Source: an uncultured Candidatus Saccharibacteria bacterium (GTDB taxonomy: Bacteria; Patescibacteriota; Minisyncoccia; Phycocordibacterales; UBA9973). Taken from it: a stretch of 64,000 nt of DNA. The notes under the pieces were generated by a model, which worked only from the letters and a program-made list of their open reading frames with translations, searched no databases and was not told the DNA's origin. Numbering within the stretch: position 1 is the stretch's first letter; every line of letters starts with the position of its first letter. Position numbers and translations under genes: made by a program. Below are positions 16,480-53,751 of the stretch, piece by piece. The DNA lies in assembly GCA_964544225.1 (NCBI GenBank), contig CAZIZK010000002.1, forward strand, positions 69,452 to 133,451. The letters are read 5' to 3'.

Positions 16480-16551
16480 GCGCGTATAGTTCAGTGGTAG
16501 AACGCTGTCCTGATAAGACAGAGGCCCTTGGTTCGATTCCAAGTACGCGCA
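16480..16551 (+). tRNA. tRNA-Ile (anticodon GAT)
   Basis: Manual cloverleaf: acceptor GCGCGTA/TACGCGC, D-stem GTTC/GAAC, anticodon stem CTGTC/GACAG with loop CTGATAA, T-arm CTTGG-TTCGATT-CCAAG, discriminator A. CCA is not encoded. Confidence 0.9.
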
Positions 16552-40761: not shown

Positions 40762-41280
40762 TTATTTTGTATTGTATGCCCAGTGTAGTAGTGCCTGGCG
40801 CTGGCGTGGTCGGCAGTGTATGTCGCCAGGCCTGCAGTTCGCACTGATCTGGCCTAGGTGCCTGCGGATAGCCTTCCACCTCTTTATCTGCCTCGCATCT
40901 TCCTTTGGAATCCGGCGCCCCATATAATACCGGCAGTACCATTGGAACCAGCCTCGGGGGTCATCCTTGTGTATCCAGTGCTTTACCTTCCACTCGGCTA
41001 GCGACTGGCTTGCATTGACTCCAAAATAATTTAACCCTGGTTCCCTCTTTGTACCTTTGGCCATTTTTGCCCGGGTGAACCAATCCTTTGGAAATTCTTT
41101 TATACAATCACGCATGTATATGCCACCGAATACGCCCATTGCCAGCATTTGCTTTGGGGTAACATTTGGCTTGAACTCGGGGTCGAAATTCTTGCCCACC
41201 GGCTCGGTCAGTACATATTCGTAACCCTTTTGCATTTTGTCATTTACTACGACTTTTTTATTTTGCTTTTTTTGCTTCAT
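40762..41280 (-). CDS. Conserved hypothetical protein (DUF4385-like)
   Basis: GGIYMRDC..LNYFGV..GWFQWYCRYYMGRR..EDARQIKRW conserved blocks. Confidence 0.45.
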   Translation of the reverse strand: MKQKKQNKKVVVNDKMQKGYEYVLTEPVGKNFDPEFKPNVTPKQMLAMGVFGGIYMRDCIKEFPKDWFTRAKMAKGTKREPGLNYFGVNASQSLAEWKVKHWIHKDDPRGWFQWYCRYYMGRRIPKEDARQIKRWKAIRRHLGQISANCRPGDIHCRPRQRQALLHWAYNTK

Positions 41281-41531
41281 TTTGTTTTGTAATTTTTTAT
41301 TAATTCTAGCTTTTGTGTGCGGGTCAATTTCTTTATTTTCGCTTCTGCTATCGATGCCCGGGACCGGTCGCGGAACTTTCTGGAATATACCAGTGTCACA
41401 GGCCTGCGTGCCGATGTATATTTGGCACCCAACTTGCTTGTGTTATGTTCACCCACACGCCTCTTTAAATCGGTTGTAATGCCCGTATACAGCGTTTTAT
41501 CCGCACATCTGAGTATATATAGGTGGTACAT
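41277..41531 (-). CDS. GIY-YIG nuclease superfamily protein (YhbQ/UPF0213-like)
   Basis: YHLYILRCADKTLYTGITTDLKRRVGEHN is a GIY-YIG signature. Start taken at MYHLY (ORF caller start 41585). Confidence 0.7.
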   Translation of the reverse strand: MYHLYILRCADKTLYTGITTDLKRRVGEHNTSKLGAKYTSARRPVTLVYSRKFRDRSRASIAEAKIKKLTRTQKLELIKNYKTK

Positions 41532-41602
41532 TATTTTATTATAGCACTTTTGTGGATAATTTATTTCCTTGCCTATTATGATCATTTTGATATAATTTCA
41601 AG

Positions 41603-41893
41603 ATGAATCAATTAATTATATTTTTTTATAATACTATCTTTATTTATCCTGTATTTTTTGTATTTTGTATAGTAATACTATTTTTAACTCGTAAGGAATA
41701 TAAGGGTATTAAAAATAAACAAAAAAACGATTTAAGTAATAATGAAAAATTTGTCATTTTTTTATATAAATTAAGTAAAATATATGCTTATATATTTACT
41801 ATTGCAGTTGTATTATATTATTTAACTGGTACATTTGAACTTTTTTACGGAATAATTAGAGTTGCCTGTTCAGATAATATTTGTCTTAACTAA
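41603..41893 (+). CDS. Small AT-rich hypothetical membrane protein
   Basis: 96 aa with 2 TM. Very AT-rich, so it may be non-coding. Confidence 0.25.
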   Translation: MNQLIIFFYNTIFIYPVFFVFCIVILFLTRKEYKGIKNKQKNDLSNNEKFVIFLYKLSKIYAYIFTIAVVLYYLTGTFELFYGIIRVACSDNICLN

Positions 41894-42159
41894 TCTGCTT
41901 GGCAGAATATAGCACCTTCTTTTTGAAGTAGTTTAGCTTTTGCCATGCTTCCACCACGATTGTAGTCGCCCACTTTACCATCGCTACGTATGACACGGTG
42001 GCAAGGCACATCTGGCTTGTAATTCCCCTTCATGATACTACCCACCACTCGACAAGCTCGTGGCGAGCCTGCACGTGTAGCGACTTGTTTATAAGTCATT
42101 GTTTTACCCTTTGGTATTTTACGGACAATGTCTAGCACCTTTTCATTAAAACTTTTCAT
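41890..42159 (-). CDS. ogt: Methylated-DNA-protein-cysteine methyltransferase family protein (MGMT DNA-binding domain only)
   Basis: PCHRVI active-site motif and HTH region. 89 aa. Confidence 0.75.
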   Translation of the reverse strand: MKSFNEKVLDIVRKIPKGKTMTYKQVATRAGSPRACRVVGSIMKGNYKPDVPCHRVIRSDGKVGDYNRGGSMAKAKLLQKEGAIFCQAD

Positions 42160-46400: not shown

Positions 46401-46438
46401 ATTATACCACAAAGCCCGAGTGTTCCCTCGGGCTTTTT
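46401..46438 (-). promoter_or_regulatory. Terminator-hairpin + TTTGTGGTATAAT extended -10 module
   Basis: Minus strand reads gcccgagggaacactcgggc-TTTGTGGTATAAT, with the -10 six nt before ATG 46394. Confidence 0.55.
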
Positions 46439-46445
46439 ATTATAA

Positions 46446-46483
46446 TGAACATTCCTACATTCTCAAGAATGTAGGAATGTTCA
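46446..46483. promoter_or_regulatory. Perfect 18-2-18 palindrome P3
   Basis: TGAACATTCCTACATTCT-CA-AGAATGTAGGAATGTTCA, upstream of the small-protein/msrB operon promoter. Confidence 0.6.
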
Positions 46484-46487
46484 TTGG

Positions 46488-46739
46488 TTAATTTTTTCTC
46501 CAGCGTGGGGCGAAGCGGATCATGAATGTGTAAAACTTGGCTAATATATATGGGGTGCCACTTTTACGCATGGATTCGTAGCAGACTTTTTGAAACTCTT
46601 TCAAGTCATTGCCTTCGTAACAAAGCTTGCCGCCCTTGTAGCACAGGCTACAATAAATATCGCTCTCCCTTACCCCTGGGTCCTTACTAAAAGGCATTAA
46701 ACAACTCTGACACGCATTACATTTTTTGTTTTGGCTCAT
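46488..46739 (-). CDS. Putative zinc-ribbon domain protein (Zn_ribbon_2-like)
   Basis: CNACQSCLMPF..YCSLCYKGGK pattern. Confidence 0.5.
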   Translation of the reverse strand: MSQNKKCNACQSCLMPFSKDPGVRESDIYCSLCYKGGKLCYEGNDLKEFQKVCYESMRKSGTPYILAKFYTFMIRFAPRWRKN

Positions 46740-46942
46740 ATAAATATATTACTAAAATATTTTCTAGAGGTCAAAAATTTTTCAAATAAATACTCTATTT
46801 GACTAACGATTTACTTAATAACAGATTGGACTAAGTATAAAATATCCTTACTAAATAATAATCTTTTAGTAAAATTAAAAGTTTTATTTTAATGTAGCTT
46901 TAAATTTAAATACAAACTAGCGCTTTATTCATCTATTGAATT

Positions 46943-47815
46943 ATGCTATATTATTTTTATATGCAATTACAATACTTTACATATTTTTTAAACCCTCTGA
47001 GTACTCCGAGCTTATTTCCTGAAACGAGACCTAAAAAGGAAATATTCAGACAAGTCTTACAGCAGAAAAACTTAAAATATAAGGCTTCTGGATCAGATTT
47101 AGCCTACGTTTTTGAAAAAGAAGATGGAGATTATATAGTTGCTAAATTAGGCAAAAAGCAATCTCTTAAGAGAAGCCTTCCTCCAGAAGAAAGGTTTGAA
47201 GAAACTATTGATGAAAATTGGCCACATTGTTTAGTTTTTTTTAATTTAGATGAAAATCCTAATACAGGTCAAAAAATTGCATTTGAATATAAAACAAATA
47301 TTTTTAAAACACCCTTTGTCCAACTGCAAGATCTTGCTGAGGAACTAAATATTGCACTTTTTAATTCTAATTATGCTGTGTCAATTCATCCAGTAACAGA
47401 AGAGAGAAAGTTTTGGGATATTGTTAAAGAAAACCAAGGTAAGATTGAAAAAGTAACTTTTTCTTTTAATGCACCAAATCTTTTTAATCTAAAAAATAAT
47501 TTAAATGACGATTTAAGAAATGCTCAGGAGAAATTTGGACTAACAAAGGCAACCGTTGAATTCGAAAATCCACAAGGGAAACTCACTCTTTCAGAAGATA
47601 ATGATTTTTTACAACAAGGCGTAGAGTATGTTCGTAAGGGAGGAGGAGACTTTCATCTTAAAATAAAAAATAGTAAAAGCAGAATAATCAGAAGTGAGGA
47701 TGGTGTGATGACTAAAACAGTTGATTATGAAGATATTGAGGCAAGAATAAAATTTGATAATCCTAATGTTATCAACAGTGCAATTAAAAATATTTTTGAT
47801 AAAATAAAAGAATGA
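46943..47815 (+). CDS. Hypothetical protein (AT-rich island)
   Basis: 290 aa ORF with no recognisable motif. Overlaps the next gene by ATGA. Confidence 0.4.
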   Translation: MLYYFYMQLQYFTYFLNPLSTPSLFPETRPKKEIFRQVLQQKNLKYKASGSDLAYVFEKEDGDYIVAKLGKKQSLKRSLPPEERFEETIDENWPHCLVFFNLDENPNTGQKIAFEYKTNIFKTPFVQLQDLAEELNIALFNSNYAVSIHPVTEERKFWDIVKENQGKIEKVTFSFNAPNLFNLKNNLNDDLRNAQEKFGLTKATVEFENPQGKLTLSEDNDFLQQGVEYVRKGGGDFHLKIKNSKSRIIRSEDGVMTKTVDYEDIEARIKFDNPNVINSAIKNIFDKIKE

Positions 47816-48264
47816 GATTTCTTGGATTTTTATTTTTAACAATTCTAATTTCTGCTGGTATTATTACTGTAGATATTCTTCTTCCTGGAAATTTTTTAAT
47901 TAACTTTATCAATAATCATTACATTGAAACCTTTGCTTCTTTAATTGGTTTCAATCTTGCGTCAGTAACATTTTTACTCGGACAACTTATTACCATTGAA
48001 GCAACAATAAATCAAGAGTCTATGTTCGAATCAACAAGAAAAGAAATAAAGCACAATGCATTCTTTTTAATTTTTATTTTTGTTGTAGCTTTACTCCTTT
48101 TAACTTTTAGACCTGATATAGGTATAACTGGAAGATTTGACCTAAATATTGCTTATTATGTGGTTAATACTTTAGTAATTTCTATATTTTTAATGGCCTT
48201 GTTTGCTATTTTTGAAATATTGAATTCTGTATTTTCTATAGGTAAATTTTTTAAGAAAAAATAA
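47812..48264 (+). CDS. Hypothetical 4-TM membrane protein (AT-rich island)
   Basis: 150 aa with 4 hydrophobic helices. Translationally coupled to the 46943 gene. Confidence 0.4.
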   Translation: MRFLGFLFLTILISAGIITVDILLPGNFLINFINNHYIETFASLIGFNLASVTFLLGQLITIEATINQESMFESTRKEIKHNAFFLIFIFVVALLLLTFRPDIGITGRFDLNIAYYVVNTLVISIFLMALFAIFEILNSVFSIGKFFKKK

Positions 48265-48372
48265 TTTTTGATATAACAACAAGAATTAAAATTGTAAAAT
48301 TAATTAATCTCAAGTTGTTTTTTACCTATCTTAATAGGTCATTTATATCAATCGGTTCATGTGATTATTTTA

Positions 48373-49122
48373 CTATTTTTGAAATATAAATAAATGCTCG
48401 TGCATTATTAATAAGAAATTTGAATCTTTTGATTTTTGAACCCAAAATCCTGTAGCCTTGCAATTAAATTGCCTCTTAATAATGTCTTCTTTTAATTCAA
48501 AACCAGAATCTAAAAACTTTTGCATTACTTTGTATGCCAATGGCTGATACATTTTATTACGCCTTGTGTCCCCCATTAGAATTGCACAGAATTTACCTGG
48601 TCTTAATACTCGATATAATTCTTTTGCGGTCTTTTCAATTTCATAACAAAACTTGTCTATATCATGAATATTTGAAATATCGTCCTCTATTGTTCCATCG
48701 CTATATTTAATTATGTCTGCATATGGTGGATGAGTAAGAGCAAAATCTATCTCTTTATCTTTAATAAAGCTTAAATTTCTGGCATCACCCTTCACCACTC
48801 TTTGTTTAGATTTATTATCAACAATGAAATCTAAAGCTTTTATAGTTCTTTCAATAGCTACTTCATTAACATCTACACAAGTAATATGCCTATTTAAAAT
48901 TTTTGCTTCTATTGCTGTCGTGCCACCACCAATCATGCAATCTAGCAAATGGTCGCCCTCTTTTGAGTATCTTAAAATTAAATTCCGTACAACCTCTGGT
49001 GCCCAATTACCTCGCCAATCTGAAGTATGTGTAGCCCAGTTACCACGACGAGGAAAAGCCCAGACCGTAGTACACTCCATTTCAAAACTTTCAGGATGAA
49101 GTTTTAAATTTTTTTGAGACAT
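48373..49122 (-). CDS. DNA methyltransferase (N4-cytosine/N6-adenine, PF01555-like)
   Basis: Motif I LDCMIGGGTTAIEA and motif IV THPPYAD. The PF01555-like FP..L region precedes motif I. Confidence 0.7.
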   Translation of the reverse strand: MSQKNLKLHPESFEMECTTVWAFPRRGNWATHTSDWRGNWAPEVVRNLILRYSKEGDHLLDCMIGGGTTAIEAKILNRHITCVDVNEVAIERTIKALDFIVDNKSKQRVVKGDARNLSFIKDKEIDFALTHPPYADIIKYSDGTIEDDISNIHDIDKFCYEIEKTAKELYRVLRPGKFCAILMGDTRRNKMYQPLAYKVMQKFLDSGFELKEDIIKRQFNCKATGFWVQKSKDSNFLLIMHEHLFIFQK

Positions 49123-49130
49123 TGTTTTTT

Positions 49131-49751
49131 TTACTTTTTATTCCAACAATTTTTAGGAAAACCTATTTTCTTTAAAATATCTGTAAACGCAACATATTCA
49201 ATATGTTGTTCTTTGTAAAAAGCCAAGCTTTCTTTGAGTTCGATTGTTTGATTATTTTTATCTAAGAGATCTCCAAAAGCGAACTTTTCTCTAGCTTCAT
49301 ATTCTTGATAGCCAACTAAAATTATTTGTAGTGGTTTGTGATAAAGCCTTGGAACTTCTCCATATTTCAAAGGTACACCAAGAATTTTTTCGCCCGCAGT
49401 ACCTGGAGTAGACCAGCTTCTACCTTTTACTTCATAAACATAATCGTCACATTCTAAATCTGGATCATATTTTTTAGTTCTTAATGAGCTTTTTTTAGTG
49501 GTGGTAGACCTAACATTTTTTCTACCGAGCTTAATAAGTGCCTCCATTACTAATTCTTGGCAAAGTACAGTTGTCCATTGTTTTCCGCCAATGGTATTAA
49601 TAACCTTATTGCCCCAATCTTGCTCAATTTTCTTTGATTCTTTAAGCCTTTTCTCGCTTTCAGTATTACGCAAAGAAATATCAGTGATACCTTCATAGCA
49701 CCATTGAATAACTTTTGGATTATTAAGCAAATTTAAATTTTCTTTTTTCAT
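49131..49751 (-). CDS. Putative restriction endonuclease (PD-(D/E)xK-like)
   Basis: ECDDYVYEVKG resembles a (D/E)xK catalytic motif. Gene is immediately upstream of, and co-oriented with, the methyltransferase. Confidence 0.4.
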   Translation of the reverse strand: MKKENLNLLNNPKVIQWCYEGITDISLRNTESEKRLKESKKIEQDWGNKVINTIGGKQWTTVLCQELVMEALIKLGRKNVRSTTTKKSSLRTKKYDPDLECDDYVYEVKGRSWSTPGTAGEKILGVPLKYGEVPRLYHKPLQIILVGYQEYEAREKFAFGDLLDKNNQTIELKESLAFYKEQHIEYVAFTDILKKIGFPKNCWNKK

Positions 49752-49771
49752 AAATATTTTTTGATGTGAAA

Positions 49772-50860
49772 TTAGAATGGAATATCTAAAGGATCAATTT
49801 CTTCATTTTGAGTGTTAGGATCAGGTACATAATAAAATGTGTCTTTATTAATTTTATATGTTTCAATATATTTCTTTTTTATAGCTTCCCAATCTTCACT
49901 AGAAATATATCTGTCCTTTAAAGATGTTAGTAATAATTCAATTAAAGAAATATTATAATTACAAATTAATTTATAAAAATACTCATTAGATACTTTTATT
50001 CTGTCCTTTTCCGAATGTCGAACATCAAATATGCTGTTATTGAGTGTTTGGCATGTTTTTGCCATATCACTAATTATTACCATAAATTCCGCCTCCCTTT
50101 TTTCTTTTTCATCTGTGTTAACAACAATTAAGCTTACTAGGTCTTTTTTCAATCCATCTATAACATTCTTCTTTGATTCAGTTTCATCGCTAAAAATTAA
50201 TCCTAAAATCTCTGCAGATATTTTGGATGCATTTATGTAGTCATCTTCATCAAAGAAACTATAGTAAGAATTTATTTTTTCTGATAATTTAACATCTTTC
50301 AACTGAGATGCAATATTTCTCAAATCCTCTCCTTCGTTTTTAGTAATTAAGTCTTCTTTTATATAGTAATTAATTTTTTCTTCCTTAAAGATATTGTTAA
50401 TTCTATTAATGACATCTTTTCTTTGATTTGCTTTAGAAAAAAGAATAGTTGCTTCTAGTAAATCAAAAAGTATGAAATCATCGTAAACATCTTCCATAAT
50501 TTGTTTTTCATCATTACTAACAACTGATTCACCTTTAAATTTAAATGGGTAGTAATCAAAACTATCAGAAAATCTATACCCAAGTTCTGATTCAGAAAAA
50601 TCATCTATAAGTTTTTTGTTAAAGTAGTGGGCCTTGTCTTTTCTATTTTCAATTAGAATATATTTCTCTAAAAAAAGATCTGAGCTTGAAATAAATTTCA
50701 ATAGGGAAACTAATCTAATTCTTGTTTGAGAATTAATAATTTCATTCCTTTTCTGCCTATTTAAGTAACCTATTCTGGAATCTCTATTATTAACCGTGCT
50801 AGACCTATAAAAATTAGACGCAAATCCATCTCTTTTGTTTCTTTTTGAGAAAAGTTTCAT
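49772..50860 (-). CDS. Hypothetical protein within the restriction-modification island
   Basis: 362 aa, helical and charged. No recognisable motif. Tightly packed between the Dam-like methyltransferase and the putative nuclease. Confidence 0.4.
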   Translation of the reverse strand: MKLFSKRNKRDGFASNFYRSSTVNNRDSRIGYLNRQKRNEIINSQTRIRLVSLLKFISSSDLFLEKYILIENRKDKAHYFNKKLIDDFSESELGYRFSDSFDYYPFKFKGESVVSNDEKQIMEDVYDDFILFDLLEATILFSKANQRKDVINRINNIFKEEKINYYIKEDLITKNEGEDLRNIASQLKDVKLSEKINSYYSFFDEDDYINASKISAEILGLIFSDETESKKNVIDGLKKDLVSLIVVNTDEKEKREAEFMVIISDMAKTCQTLNNSIFDVRHSEKDRIKVSNEYFYKLICNYNISLIELLLTSLKDRYISSEDWEAIKKKYIETYKINKDTFYYVPDPNTQNEEIDPLDIPF

Positions 50861-50861
50861 A

Positions 50862-51830
50862 TTAATAATTAGTTACTAATACCTCTGTAATTTTTCCGCG
50901 ACCTGTGCCTTTTGAGTTTATCGATCTGCCAGCTTCGATTTTATTGATTTTCACCTTCTTGTCTTTTAATTCAGAATAGATCTTATTTATAAAAGGTGTA
51001 TCTGAATTTGAAAGCATAACAAAACAACCTCTGTTATGGAGCTGATAAAATACATCCCTGAGTTCTATCTGTTCTTTATCAAGGAAAGAATCGGCAGTAT
51101 AAGCAGTAAATGAAGAAGTTTTGTTGATTGGGTAATATGGTGGGTCAAAGTATATAAAGTCCCCTTTTTTAGCTTTCTTTAACACATTTTTATAATCTCC
51201 ATGATTAATTGTCACTTTTTGTAAAGAAGCTGAGACTTTTTTAAGATTCACCTCATCACAGATAAGAGCATTTTTATTTAATCCAAAAGGGGTATTAAAT
51301 CCACCTTGTTTATTAACACGATACAGGCCATTGAAACATGTCCTGTTTAAATAAATAAACCTTGAAGCTATCTCTACCTCTGATAAATCTTTAATATTTT
51401 TTGCACGAATTTTTAGAAAATAATCTTTATTGTTTTTATGTTTTTTAAGAGTTCCAATCAATTCATCCACATTATTTTTTATAACATTATAGGTAACTAC
51501 TAGTTCATTATTTAAATCAGAAAGTATTGCTTTTTTAGGAAGTAGGTCAAAGAAAACAGCACCACCCCCTACAAATGGTTCAAAATATGTGTTCTTTAAT
51601 GCATCAAAACCTTCAGGAGGATAGAAACCTAAATCACGAAATTGTTTTAATAATTGTCTTTTGCCACCTACCCATTTTACAAAAGGTTTTGCTTTTTCAT
51701 TAATTATTTTTTTAATTTCTTCAGGAACAAACTTACCTTTTGTGTGGTGTAAAATATGTTGAGCAAAAATTGAATTTATATCAAAATCCTTTTGAATTTT
51801 TTTAGATATTTCGTGTGTTGTCATGCTCAT
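50862..51830 (-). CDS. Dam-family DNA N6-adenine methyltransferase (D12 class)
   Basis: PFVKWVGGKRQLL N-terminal motif and IYFDPPYY catalytic motif. Start taken at MSMTTHE (ORF caller used a TTG at 51863). Confidence 0.85.
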   Translation of the reverse strand: MSMTTHEISKKIQKDFDINSIFAQHILHHTKGKFVPEEIKKIINEKAKPFVKWVGGKRQLLKQFRDLGFYPPEGFDALKNTYFEPFVGGGAVFFDLLPKKAILSDLNNELVVTYNVIKNNVDELIGTLKKHKNNKDYFLKIRAKNIKDLSEVEIASRFIYLNRTCFNGLYRVNKQGGFNTPFGLNKNALICDEVNLKKVSASLQKVTINHGDYKNVLKKAKKGDFIYFDPPYYPINKTSSFTAYTADSFLDKEQIELRDVFYQLHNRGCFVMLSNSDTPFINKIYSELKDKKVKINKIEAGRSINSKGTGRGKITEVLVTNY

Positions 51831-51859
51831 ATATTTTAGCACAAAATATTGATTTTTAG

Positions 51860-52033
51860 TCAATTTAATTCCTTTAGCAAATCCTCATAATCAAGCGGCT
51901 CAGTGACCATTTCGACGAGGCCGTCGTTGGAGACTTTCCGTTCATTCTTTGGCCTGTCTACGTATATCTCTACCCCATTGTTGTCGGGGTCGCGTAGGTA
52001 GATGGCCTCGGACACGCCGTAAGGCAGTAATAT
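51860..52033 (-). pseudogene. Fragment of a VOC-family (glyoxalase/ring-cleaving dioxygenase) gene, C-terminal 57 codons only
   Basis: Minus-strand frame reads ILLPYGVSEAIYLRDPDNNGVEIYVDRPKNERKVSNDGLVEMVTEPLDYEDLLKELN*, with an in-frame stop immediately upstream and no start codon. Typical VOC beta-alpha-beta-beta-beta C-terminus. Confidence 0.55.
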
Positions 52034-52128: not shown

Positions 52129-52169
52129 CCCTTTAAGGTTTTGTCCTTAAGGGGCCTTTTCTTTTTTAT
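52129..52169 (+). terminator. Intrinsic terminator (ccctttaagg-ttttgt-ccttaagggg + ccttttctttttt)
   Basis: 10 bp stem with one G-U pair and a long U-run. Overlaps the stop of the convergent NYN gene. Confidence 0.6.
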
Positions 52170-52644
52170 ACGCCAATTTATTCTGTAAGTCATTCATAAA
52201 TCTTAGATAGGGCTTTACATAATGCATCTTTAAAAGTGCTGAAAACCTGAGTTTGTTTGGTATTAAAACAGCCTGAAGCTTTTCTTTTTCTATAAAGTAG
52301 TTTATTAGGCAATGAAAATCTCCATCACCACTGACAATAATAGCTTTATCGAAATTCATGTATTCTATCATTGATTGTAAAACAAGCTCGGCATCACAAT
52401 TACCCTTGGTGGTTCCATCTTTATGTTTTAGTGTGGGTTTAAAAATACAGATAAATCCAGCTTCTTGTAAAGATGTATATAAAAGATTATTCCCTTCTAT
52501 ATAACCAATAAATAAAAAGGCTTTTGTAACCCCATATTTTTCAGTTAAGTATACACGGAATCTTTTGAAGTCTAACTTCCAACCAAGCCCTTGAATCCCA
52601 AGGTTTAAATTTTGACTATCTATAAAAGCATAGTTGTTGCTCAT
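52147..52644 (-). CDS. NYN-domain (LabA-like PIN) protein
   Basis: YAFIDSQNL..KGNCDAELV..IVSGDGDF conserved NYN acidic residues. Confidence 0.75.
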   Translation of the reverse strand: MSNNYAFIDSQNLNLGIQGLGWKLDFKRFRVYLTEKYGVTKAFLFIGYIEGNNLLYTSLQEAGFICIFKPTLKHKDGTTKGNCDAELVLQSMIEYMNFDKAIIVSGDGDFHCLINYFIEKEKLQAVLIPNKLRFSALLKMHYVKPYLRFMNDLQNKLAYKKEKAP

Positions 52645-52735
52645 ATAAATATTTTACCATAAACTTTAAATGTAATATAATAGATATATTATGAAAGAGA
52701 CCCTTGTATAGGTACGCCTATACCGGGGGCTTTTT

Positions 52736-53166: not shown

Positions 53167-53751
53167 ATGTTCCAAAAAACAATTTTTCTAGGCTTGTTGG
53201 ATCAATACGCAGATGTATTTTCCCACAAAGAAGATGATGGCGACTTGGTTATAAATCTGAAGGACAATGTAAAGAAACGCATTTTTGAAAGATTCTGGCA
53301 AGAATTTATCGACCTTGCGTGGTTGATAGGGCTAAAGAATACAAAAGTGAATGTGGAGTTGCGTTACAAATCAAAATCAGCTTCTGATATAGGTGATTAT
53401 TATCTAACAGGTAAAATTATATCACTTAAAAATGAATTATTTGTAGATTCTTATACTTCAATCTTTATGGATACTAATCAAATGCAATCCATGTCTGTAA
53501 GGAGGAATACTCTTGATTCAAATGATGATCTGATAGTTGATTATAAGTTAAATAATCATTTAGAGGATCAGGTGCGAATTTTCTGGAGTTTAGAGCCCCT
53601 AAGTGACATTGAAAGGTTTGATTGTATATTAAAAGAAGTAGAAAATGAATTTATTTCTCATACTAATAATCGTGCCTATTATCAGATCGGACTGGCTATA
53701 CCGATCTATAAAATAAAACGCCTTCGGTTCTATTCCATATACGAAGAATAG
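53167..53751 (+). CDS. Hypothetical protein
   Basis: 194 aa ORF with a strong SD (aaaggaggt). No recognisable motif. Confidence 0.4.
   Translation: MFQKTIFLGLLDQYADVFSHKEDDGDLVINLKDNVKKRIFERFWQEFIDLAWLIGLKNTKVNVELRYKSKSASDIGDYYLTGKIISLKNELFVDSYTSIFMDTNQMQSMSVRRNTLDSNDDLIVDYKLNNHLEDQVRIFWSLEPLSDIERFDCILKEVENEFISHTNNRAYYQIGLAIPIYKIKRLRFYSIYEE

Follow-up and report, generated by a model that had tools for sequence, protein, structure and literature searches.

A composite, foreign-looking island of putative defence genes at a variable chromosomal hotspot in a Patescibacteria (CPR) bacterium, with a probable GATC restriction-modification operon that has an internal cargo slot

What is an AT-rich stretch of about 5 kb, several of whose genes match no known family, doing in the chromosome of a bacterium from a lineage with reduced genomes? 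The stretch lies at positions 46740-51863 of a segment of 64,000 nucleotides (the window) of contig CAZIZK010000002.1, from an uncultured Candidatus Saccharibacteria bacterium (assembly GCA_964544225.1). Proteins that cluster with those encoded here bear the names Candidatus Nomurabacteria or Paceibacterota, in keeping with a Patescibacteria host. The Patescibacteria, or Candidate Phyla Radiation (CPR), are tiny episymbionts with reduced genomes and, to our knowledge, their anti-phage repertoire is poorly charted. The stretch bears on that repertoire, as it is a composite, foreign-looking defence island that occupies a variable hotspot of the chromosome. Our preferred reading, which we consider probable, is that the island consists of three independent modules: a Type II restriction-modification (R-M) operon that probably acts at GATC, an AbiJ-like gene lodged in a cargo slot within this operon, and a RexAB-like gene pair that is convergent with the operon. 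All three modules are of known kinds and the versions found here are new and go unrecognised by sequence-based annotation. Gene content, slot and hotspot are demonstrated, and every biochemical activity is one that we infer. The features are listed in Table 1.

The GC content is 0.284 in the island versus 0.396 in the rest of the window. When all 5.1-kb segments of the window were compared (mean GC 0.386, standard deviation 0.031) the lowest value, 0.285, was found at 46701. A first-pass annotation, made by a model from the letters alone, had described an AT-rich island of about 5 kb, and its edges coincide with those found here. Codon usage is not uniform either, with GC content at third codon positions (GC3) of 0.15-0.24 in the six island genes as against 0.38-0.51 in the neighbouring genes for MsrB, Tag, PPIase and the Zn-ribbon protein. 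Four of the six open reading frames (ORFs) are on the minus strand (Dam, 362-aa, 206-aa and 249-aa) and two are on the plus strand (290-aa and 150-aa). A relative locus from GCA_964622505.1, here L001, has the same flanks as the window, namely the NYN gene, the VOC-like fragment and the Zn-ribbon gene. Homology between the two ends at 46750 on the left side and the cargo that L001 carries between these flanks (L001 10937-16404) differs entirely from that of the window. Synteny is thus not invariable, and the interval from NYN to the Zn-ribbon gene is a variable defence hotspot.

Table 1. Features of the island and its flanks, in window coordinates.
Feature	Position	Strand	Length	Evidence and remarks
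Zn_ribbon_2 gene, left flank	46488..46739	-	83 aa	PF12674 2.8e-9; 76% nucleotide identity to L001 16424-16688
AT-rich non-coding left island edge, upstream region of 290-aa gene	46740..46942	.		direct sequence reading
RexA-like soluble protein	46943..47815	+	290 aa	
RexB-like protein with four transmembrane segments	47812..48264	+	150 aa	4-nt overlap with 290-aa gene
Second methylase, permuted N6_N4	48373..49122	-	249 aa	PF01555 4.7e-20; PADLOC MTase_II PDLC03376 7e-90
Type II restriction endonuclease, PD-(D/E)xK (P97-D98...E107-V-K109)	49131..49751	-	206 aa	PADLOC REase_II PDLC03457 2.3e-28
AbiJ-like gene, cargo of the Dam-nuclease slot	49772..50860	-	362 aa	alpha+beta N-domain, HEPN-like helical domain, acidic disordered tail
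DpnM-like Dam (D12) N6-adenine methylase	50862..51827	-		PF02086 2.6e-61; TIGR00571 2.6e-84; PDB 2DPM 1.3e-70
3' remnant of VOC/extradiol-dioxygenase-like gene, conserved right flank	51860..52033	-		HpaD E 0.014; 78% nucleotide and 79% amino acid identity to L001
NYN/LabA-like gene, right flank	52147..52644	-	165 aa	PF01936 4.3e-11; 91% nucleotide identity to L001

On the plus strand the first-pass annotation had seen a 290-aa protein translationally coupled to a protein with four transmembrane segments (4-TM). Both ORFs are present and overlap, and the second encodes four hydrophobic segments. The true start of the 290-aa protein is probably the methionine at residue 13 (MQLQYF). Neither protein has a match in Pfam or PADLOC at E <= 0.1, and NCBIfam and PHROGs likewise gave nothing usable. 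An AlphaFold2 (AF2) model of the 290-aa protein (pLDDT 84.5) has lambda RexA as its closest solved fold. The structural neighbours reported for RexA include RdgC, CHL4, IML3 and an epimerase (PMC11077077). In BFVD, Foldseek matched the model to five phage proteins, all uncharacterised and 277-322 aa long, with E from 1e-15 to 1e-7 and a TM-score of at most 0.72. The lambda proteins are 279 aa (RexA) and 144 aa (RexB) in length and are encoded in the order rexA-rexB, and the four segments are placed almost identically in the hydropathy profiles of lambda RexB and the 150-aa protein. Comparisons by hhalign were not significant (E 0.17 for the 290-aa family with lambda RexA and E 0.056 for the 4-TM family with RexB), and the link to Rex is therefore drawn from fold, size, gene order and topology only. 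No relatives of the 290-aa family were found in a scan of IMG/VR, no phage genes surround the pair in the window or in loci L040-L044, and no cI/cro immunity region is present in the window. Rex-like pairs outside lambda have a precedent, since sequence-divergent Rex homologues in actinobacteriophages have been identified by BLAST (PMC11077077).

The 290-aa family comprises 32 clusters. In L040-L044 the homologue is always followed by a protein of 151-157 aa that is 42-73% identical to the 150-aa protein of the window, usually with a 4-nt overlap. These pairs lie in unrelated neighbourhoods, in L042/43 beside a ParB-methylase and a NOV_C gene, and because the pair elsewhere never adjoins the R-M cassette it is considered a separate module. 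We regard it as somewhat more probable than not that the pair is a distant RexAB-like abortive-infection module; the earlier suggestion of an abortive-infection-like membrane module gains support and can be narrowed in this way by fold, size and topology. By analogy with lambda RexAB, the soluble RexA-fold component would detect an intermediate of phage replication or recombination and then open its 4-TM partner, so that the membrane potential collapses. The pair may instead have no role in defence and serve a housekeeping or mobile-element function, for example as a membrane-tethered RdgC-like recombination regulator or as an addiction pair resembling a toxin-antitoxin system. This is a possibility of some weight but clearly the less likely one: the patchy distribution and the unrelated contexts argue against a housekeeping role, RdgC has no strictly coupled 4-TM partner of RexB size, and the pair lies within a defence island here and beside the ParB-methylase and NOV_C genes in L042/43. 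A RexAB-like module of this kind escapes sequence-based defence finders.

The R-M operon is on the opposite strand. The first-pass annotation had assigned to it a Dam-class methyltransferase, a PD-(D/E)xK-like protein of 206 aa and a second methyltransferase of the N4/N6 kind, and the profile matches in Table 1 agree with all three classes. The TIGR00571 score of Dam is above the model cut-off, its best match in the PDB is DpnM, and its start is most likely the ATG at 51827 rather than the TTG at 51863. In the family alignment of the 206-aa nuclease the P-D...E-V-K motif is invariant. For the second methylase the predicted S/D-PPY motif did not hold; motif I (MIGGGTT) precedes motif IV, which reads THPPY, so that the order is permuted, and THPPY is invariant in 15 homologues (the window and 14 in L005-L028). 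The HPPY in this motif is unusual compared with the customary D/N/S-PPY.

The 206-aa nuclease has at least 455 homologues with 60-94% identity and, among those listed, the named ones are "hypothetical" proteins from CPR lineages. Judged by sequence, it is a member of a CPR-wide family that is unrelated to DpnII: it has no match to PF04556 (DpnII/MboI) in the Pfam scan, and an hhalign comparison of the family profile with a DpnII-family protein from locus L031 was not significant (probability 0.25). No match to the nuclease was found in the PDB with either a single sequence or a profile, or by tblastn in a plasmid collection. The layout had been likened to the two-methylase systems DpnII and MboI; this comparison is upheld by the match of Dam to DpnM, by the GATC counts in carrier loci and by locus L031 (see below), though it does not extend to the nuclease. 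The nuclease is found in 27 genome loci in two arrangements, either as Dam-(slot)-nuclease-249-aa methylase or with one beta-class methylase alone immediately upstream. The tie between Dam and the first arrangement (the MT249-type cassette) is strict. The order of methylase, nuclease and methylase is as in MboI. In L013 (4750-7318) the beta-methylase/nuclease pair is followed on its 3' side by a 547-aa protein and by ORFs of 141 and 161 aa, which could be extra defence cargo.

The R-M operon likely recognises GATC. This assignment is an indirect one, based on the resemblance of Dam to DpnM, on the avoidance of GATC in the loci that carry the cassette, and on the replacement of the nuclease by a DpnII-type enzyme in L031. 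The tetranucleotide is under-represented in all 22 carrier loci, with ratios of observed to expected counts (O/E) of 0.34-0.89 and pooled z values of -6.9 and -5.9. In L031, a true DpnII-family nuclease (PF04556 1e-93) lies between the same Dam and the beta methylase, and the 206-aa gene is frameshifted. The order in L031 (4127-8379) is Dam, a 283-aa protein with no family match, the DpnII-family nuclease, the frameshifted 206-aa nuclease gene and the beta-class methylase, an order that suggests an exchange of one GATC-type nuclease for another, caught midway. If the operon does act at GATC, incoming DNA that is unmethylated there would be cut.

Several observations call for caution about GATC as the site. 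The window shows no avoidance of GATC (O/E 1.00 outside the island, and 1.03 in L001), unlike all 22 other carriers, and the control loci are mixed for GATC representation. Additionally, the single beta methylase of the second arrangement is closest to CcrM in the PDB (9.4e-58), and it matches NF050803 at 4e-73 with a score far below the model cut-off. The CcrM-like methylase and the lack of GATC avoidance in the window, together with the unusual THPPY motif of the second methylase, would fit an alternative in which the nuclease and the methylases recognise a site other than GATC, such as GANTC, and Dam is an independent orphan or companion methylase. We consider this alternative unlikely and rank it second because GANTC is not under-represented in the carriers (O/E 0.97 and 0.95), whereas GATC is avoided in every one of the 22. 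The strict tie of Dam to the MT249-type cassette and the coexistence of a DpnII nuclease with the same two methylase types in L031 also speak against it. GATC methylases of the DpnA type are themselves beta-class enzymes, like HinfI and CcrM. The absence of GATC avoidance in the window would fit a recent acquisition of the operon, which it does not prove. Other four-letter palindromes are depleted in the window, namely GTAC (O/E 0.78, z -3.6) and TCGA (O/E 0.81), and hint at other R-M pressures. With GATC as the favoured site, the 206-aa proteins form a family of probable GATC nucleases, widespread in CPR lineages and annotated only as hypothetical.

Could the island genes be native after all, their low GC reflecting locally relaxed or fast evolution with no acquisition? 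The window does contain further AT-rich patches, for example 41250-42000 (GC 0.26-0.31), and no integrase was found among its ORFs or in the family scans, no tRNA lies near the island (the single tRNA of the window is at 16480), and no convincing att-type repeats flank it. Even so, native origin is very improbable given the wholly different genes between homologous flanks in L001, the occurrence of the same R-M cassette at other chromosomal sites in other CPR lineages with 63-94% protein identity, and a host that, unlike all other carriers, shows no avoidance of GATC.

The right edge of the island had been explained differently. Beyond it the first-pass annotation had noted the 3' remnant of a VOC gene and had taken it for a target disrupted by the insertion. 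The remnant is real, though its profile support is weak, and it is GC-rich (GC 0.48, GC3 0.60); the disruption has to be given up. At its end next to the island the fragment still has its natural C-terminus with the stop codon, and its missing 5' part would lie towards NYN, where a spacer of 113 bp remains. No VOC 5' half is present at the other edge of the island when the sequence there is read directly, and the same fragment adjoins NYN in L001 beside different cargo. For these reasons the VOC gene was not cut by this insertion, and the fragment is counted as part of the flank, a remnant of earlier date.

A candidate for an att-like repeat, a 35-nt direct repeat of 80% identity at 46728-46762 and 52633-52667, was rejected: its two copies cover the start codons and leader sequences of the Zn-ribbon gene and of NYN, and probably reflect similar gene starts. 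This repeat brackets NYN, the VOC remnant and the island, and could mark a recombination-prone flank. Two strong hairpins lie 3' of the Zn-ribbon gene (46411-46486), a perfect 20-bp palindrome at 46444-46485 and a GC-rich terminator-like stem at 46411-46436. The region upstream of NYN is also unlike L001, and the variable region may exceed the island; an AT-rich patch at 53167-53751 encodes a 194-aa protein with no family match (GC 0.32, two-member cluster). The hotspot genes of L001 are those for a Type ISP restriction enzyme of 1040 aa, a zeta-toxin kinase with a 54-aa ORF behind it, a SOUL-domain protein and a member of the 2-phosphosulpholactate phosphatase family.

The position between Dam and the nuclease is a slot whose occupant varies. 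It is empty in six loci, where Dam, the nuclease and the 249-aa methylase are contiguous, and it holds a GmrSD-type Type IV enzyme in seven (L005, L009, L010, L012, L020, L024 and L029), an AIPR/AbiU-like protein in two (L021 and L008), the 283-aa protein with the DpnII nuclease in one (L031), and a member of the 362-aa family in the window and, at another chromosomal site, in L033-35. Slot cargo starts 2-20 nt past the Dam stop codon. The junction TAATATG is common to the window and L005, and no conserved recombination site was seen at the slot junctions. Identity among the GmrSD proteins of the slot is no more than 24-30%, as compared with 63-94% for the flanking R-M genes. Their divergence implies repeated replacement or very fast evolution, and the GmrSD gene of L010 is split in two. 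A slot in which GmrSD, AbiU/AIPR, DpnII-type and AbiJ-like genes interchange could serve as bait for further defence genes.

The 362-aa protein that fills the slot in the window yielded nothing usable in Pfam, NCBIfam, PHROGs and PADLOC scans, and its family had no match in PDB searches with single sequences or profiles. The family, with 72 representatives at 50% clustering, has so far been found only in CPR metagenomes. It is mostly encoded as a single gene and stands without nearby R-M genes in L036-39 and L046-49. With the R-M cassette complete without it as well, the 362-aa protein is regarded as an autonomous module and not as a subunit of the nuclease. The idea put forward in the first-pass annotation, that the protein is a subunit or specificity partner needed for cleavage by the restriction enzyme, can draw on the tight spacing (its start is 2 nt past the Dam stop and its stop 20 nt before the nuclease start) and on the same four-gene order in L033-35, and it is very improbable, being largely refuted by the six contiguous cassettes without the gene, the ten loci with unrelated slot genes, and the loci in which the family stands alone. 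Homologues adjoin ThsB_TIR and Trypco2 genes in L036 and L038, and the one in L046 is near DUF2726 and SMODS-like genes and an HTH regulator; these small defence neighbourhoods of CPR bacteria (L036-L038 and L046) also hold several genes that lack annotation.

In the AF2 model of the 362-aa protein (pLDDT 86.7) an alpha+beta domain at the N-terminus is followed by a helical C-terminal domain, with a predicted HEPN-like fold, and by an acidic tail of low confidence. Weak matches to AbiJ_NTD4 (PF18863) were found in 10 of 51 family members (best E 2.3e-4), the window protein not being among them, and one member has a precomputed weak match to AbiJ_NTD4. In the family alignment the N-terminus MxLFSKR is conserved, Glu136 in the N-terminal domain is invariant, and so is the adjacent pair Arg281-His282 (IRHTD). 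The canonical Rx4-6H motif is absent from the alignment, in which no histidine lies 4-6 residues past Arg281, and it is for this reason that the protein is called AbiJ-like and is not placed in AbiJ itself. Of the families listed for the members, the 25 commonest do not include Abi_C.

The C-terminus reads [DEN][IL]PF in 46 of 51 members and DIPF in the window protein, an ending that is unique among the ORFs of 60 aa or more in the window and those of 80 aa or more in L001-L044. The C-terminal hexapeptide DDDIPF of SSB, a protein that binds single-stranded DNA, is a known protein-interaction tip (PMC5872125). The likeness of the acidic DIPF tail to this tip suggests that the tail may dock on the partners to which SSB normally binds. 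Nothing was found in the literature that joins AbiJ and HEPN with SSB, or DDIPF with defence. AbiJ-type HEPN proteins with N-terminal sensor domains have been described (PMC3710099). In the 362-aa protein the N-terminal alpha+beta domain would presumably be the sensor and the HEPN-like domain the effector, possibly an RNase in which the Arg-His pair replaces the canonical motif. A bolder view, that the protein represents a new kind of single-gene abortive-infection system with an Arg-His HEPN domain, docked on or triggered via host or phage binders of the SSB tip through its mimic tail and provided with a dedicated slot in a CPR Type II GATC operon, is in our opinion doubtful. If functional, the tail would offer a sensing or recruitment route via the SSB interaction hub.

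How does the island compare with systems that are already known? The RexAB-like pair resembles lambda RexA/RexB in its gene order, with a soluble protein first (about 280 aa, RexA/RdgC/CHL4/IML3 fold) and a 4-TM protein second (about 150 aa), and in a nearly identical hydropathy layout. It differs in having no detectable sequence similarity, in its location on a CPR chromosome and in the 4-nt overlap of its genes. The R-M operon shares with DpnII and MboI a DpnM-like Dam that is joined in a single operon by a nuclease and by a second methylase from a different class. It differs in its nuclease, a 206-aa PD-(D/E)xK protein without similarity to the DpnII/MboI family, in its second methylase, which is permuted with THPPY and is not a DpnA-type beta enzyme, and in its internal cargo slot.

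The best-known defence genes embedded in R-M operons, such as PrrC, are found in Type I operons. The locus is similar to embedded cases of this kind in that different defence genes stand in for one another at one point flanked by conserved R-M genes, just as differing cargos between conserved chromosomal flanks recall the hotspots of defence islands. It differs in its host operon, which is small and of Type II, and in having its cargo at one exact point directly past the Dam stop codon. HEPN genes inside R-M operons have been described by Anantharaman et al. (2013, PMC3710099). Like AbiJ/HEPN proteins (PMC3710099), the 362-aa protein would combine an AbiJ_NTD4-like N-terminal domain with a HEPN-like C-terminal domain in a single gene embedded in an R-M operon; in place of Abi_C and Rx4-6H its family has the invariant Arg-His pair, the glutamate of the N-terminal domain and the DIPF tail. 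Most unusual in the island are the precise cargo position within a Type II operon of small size and the tail that resembles the SSB tip.

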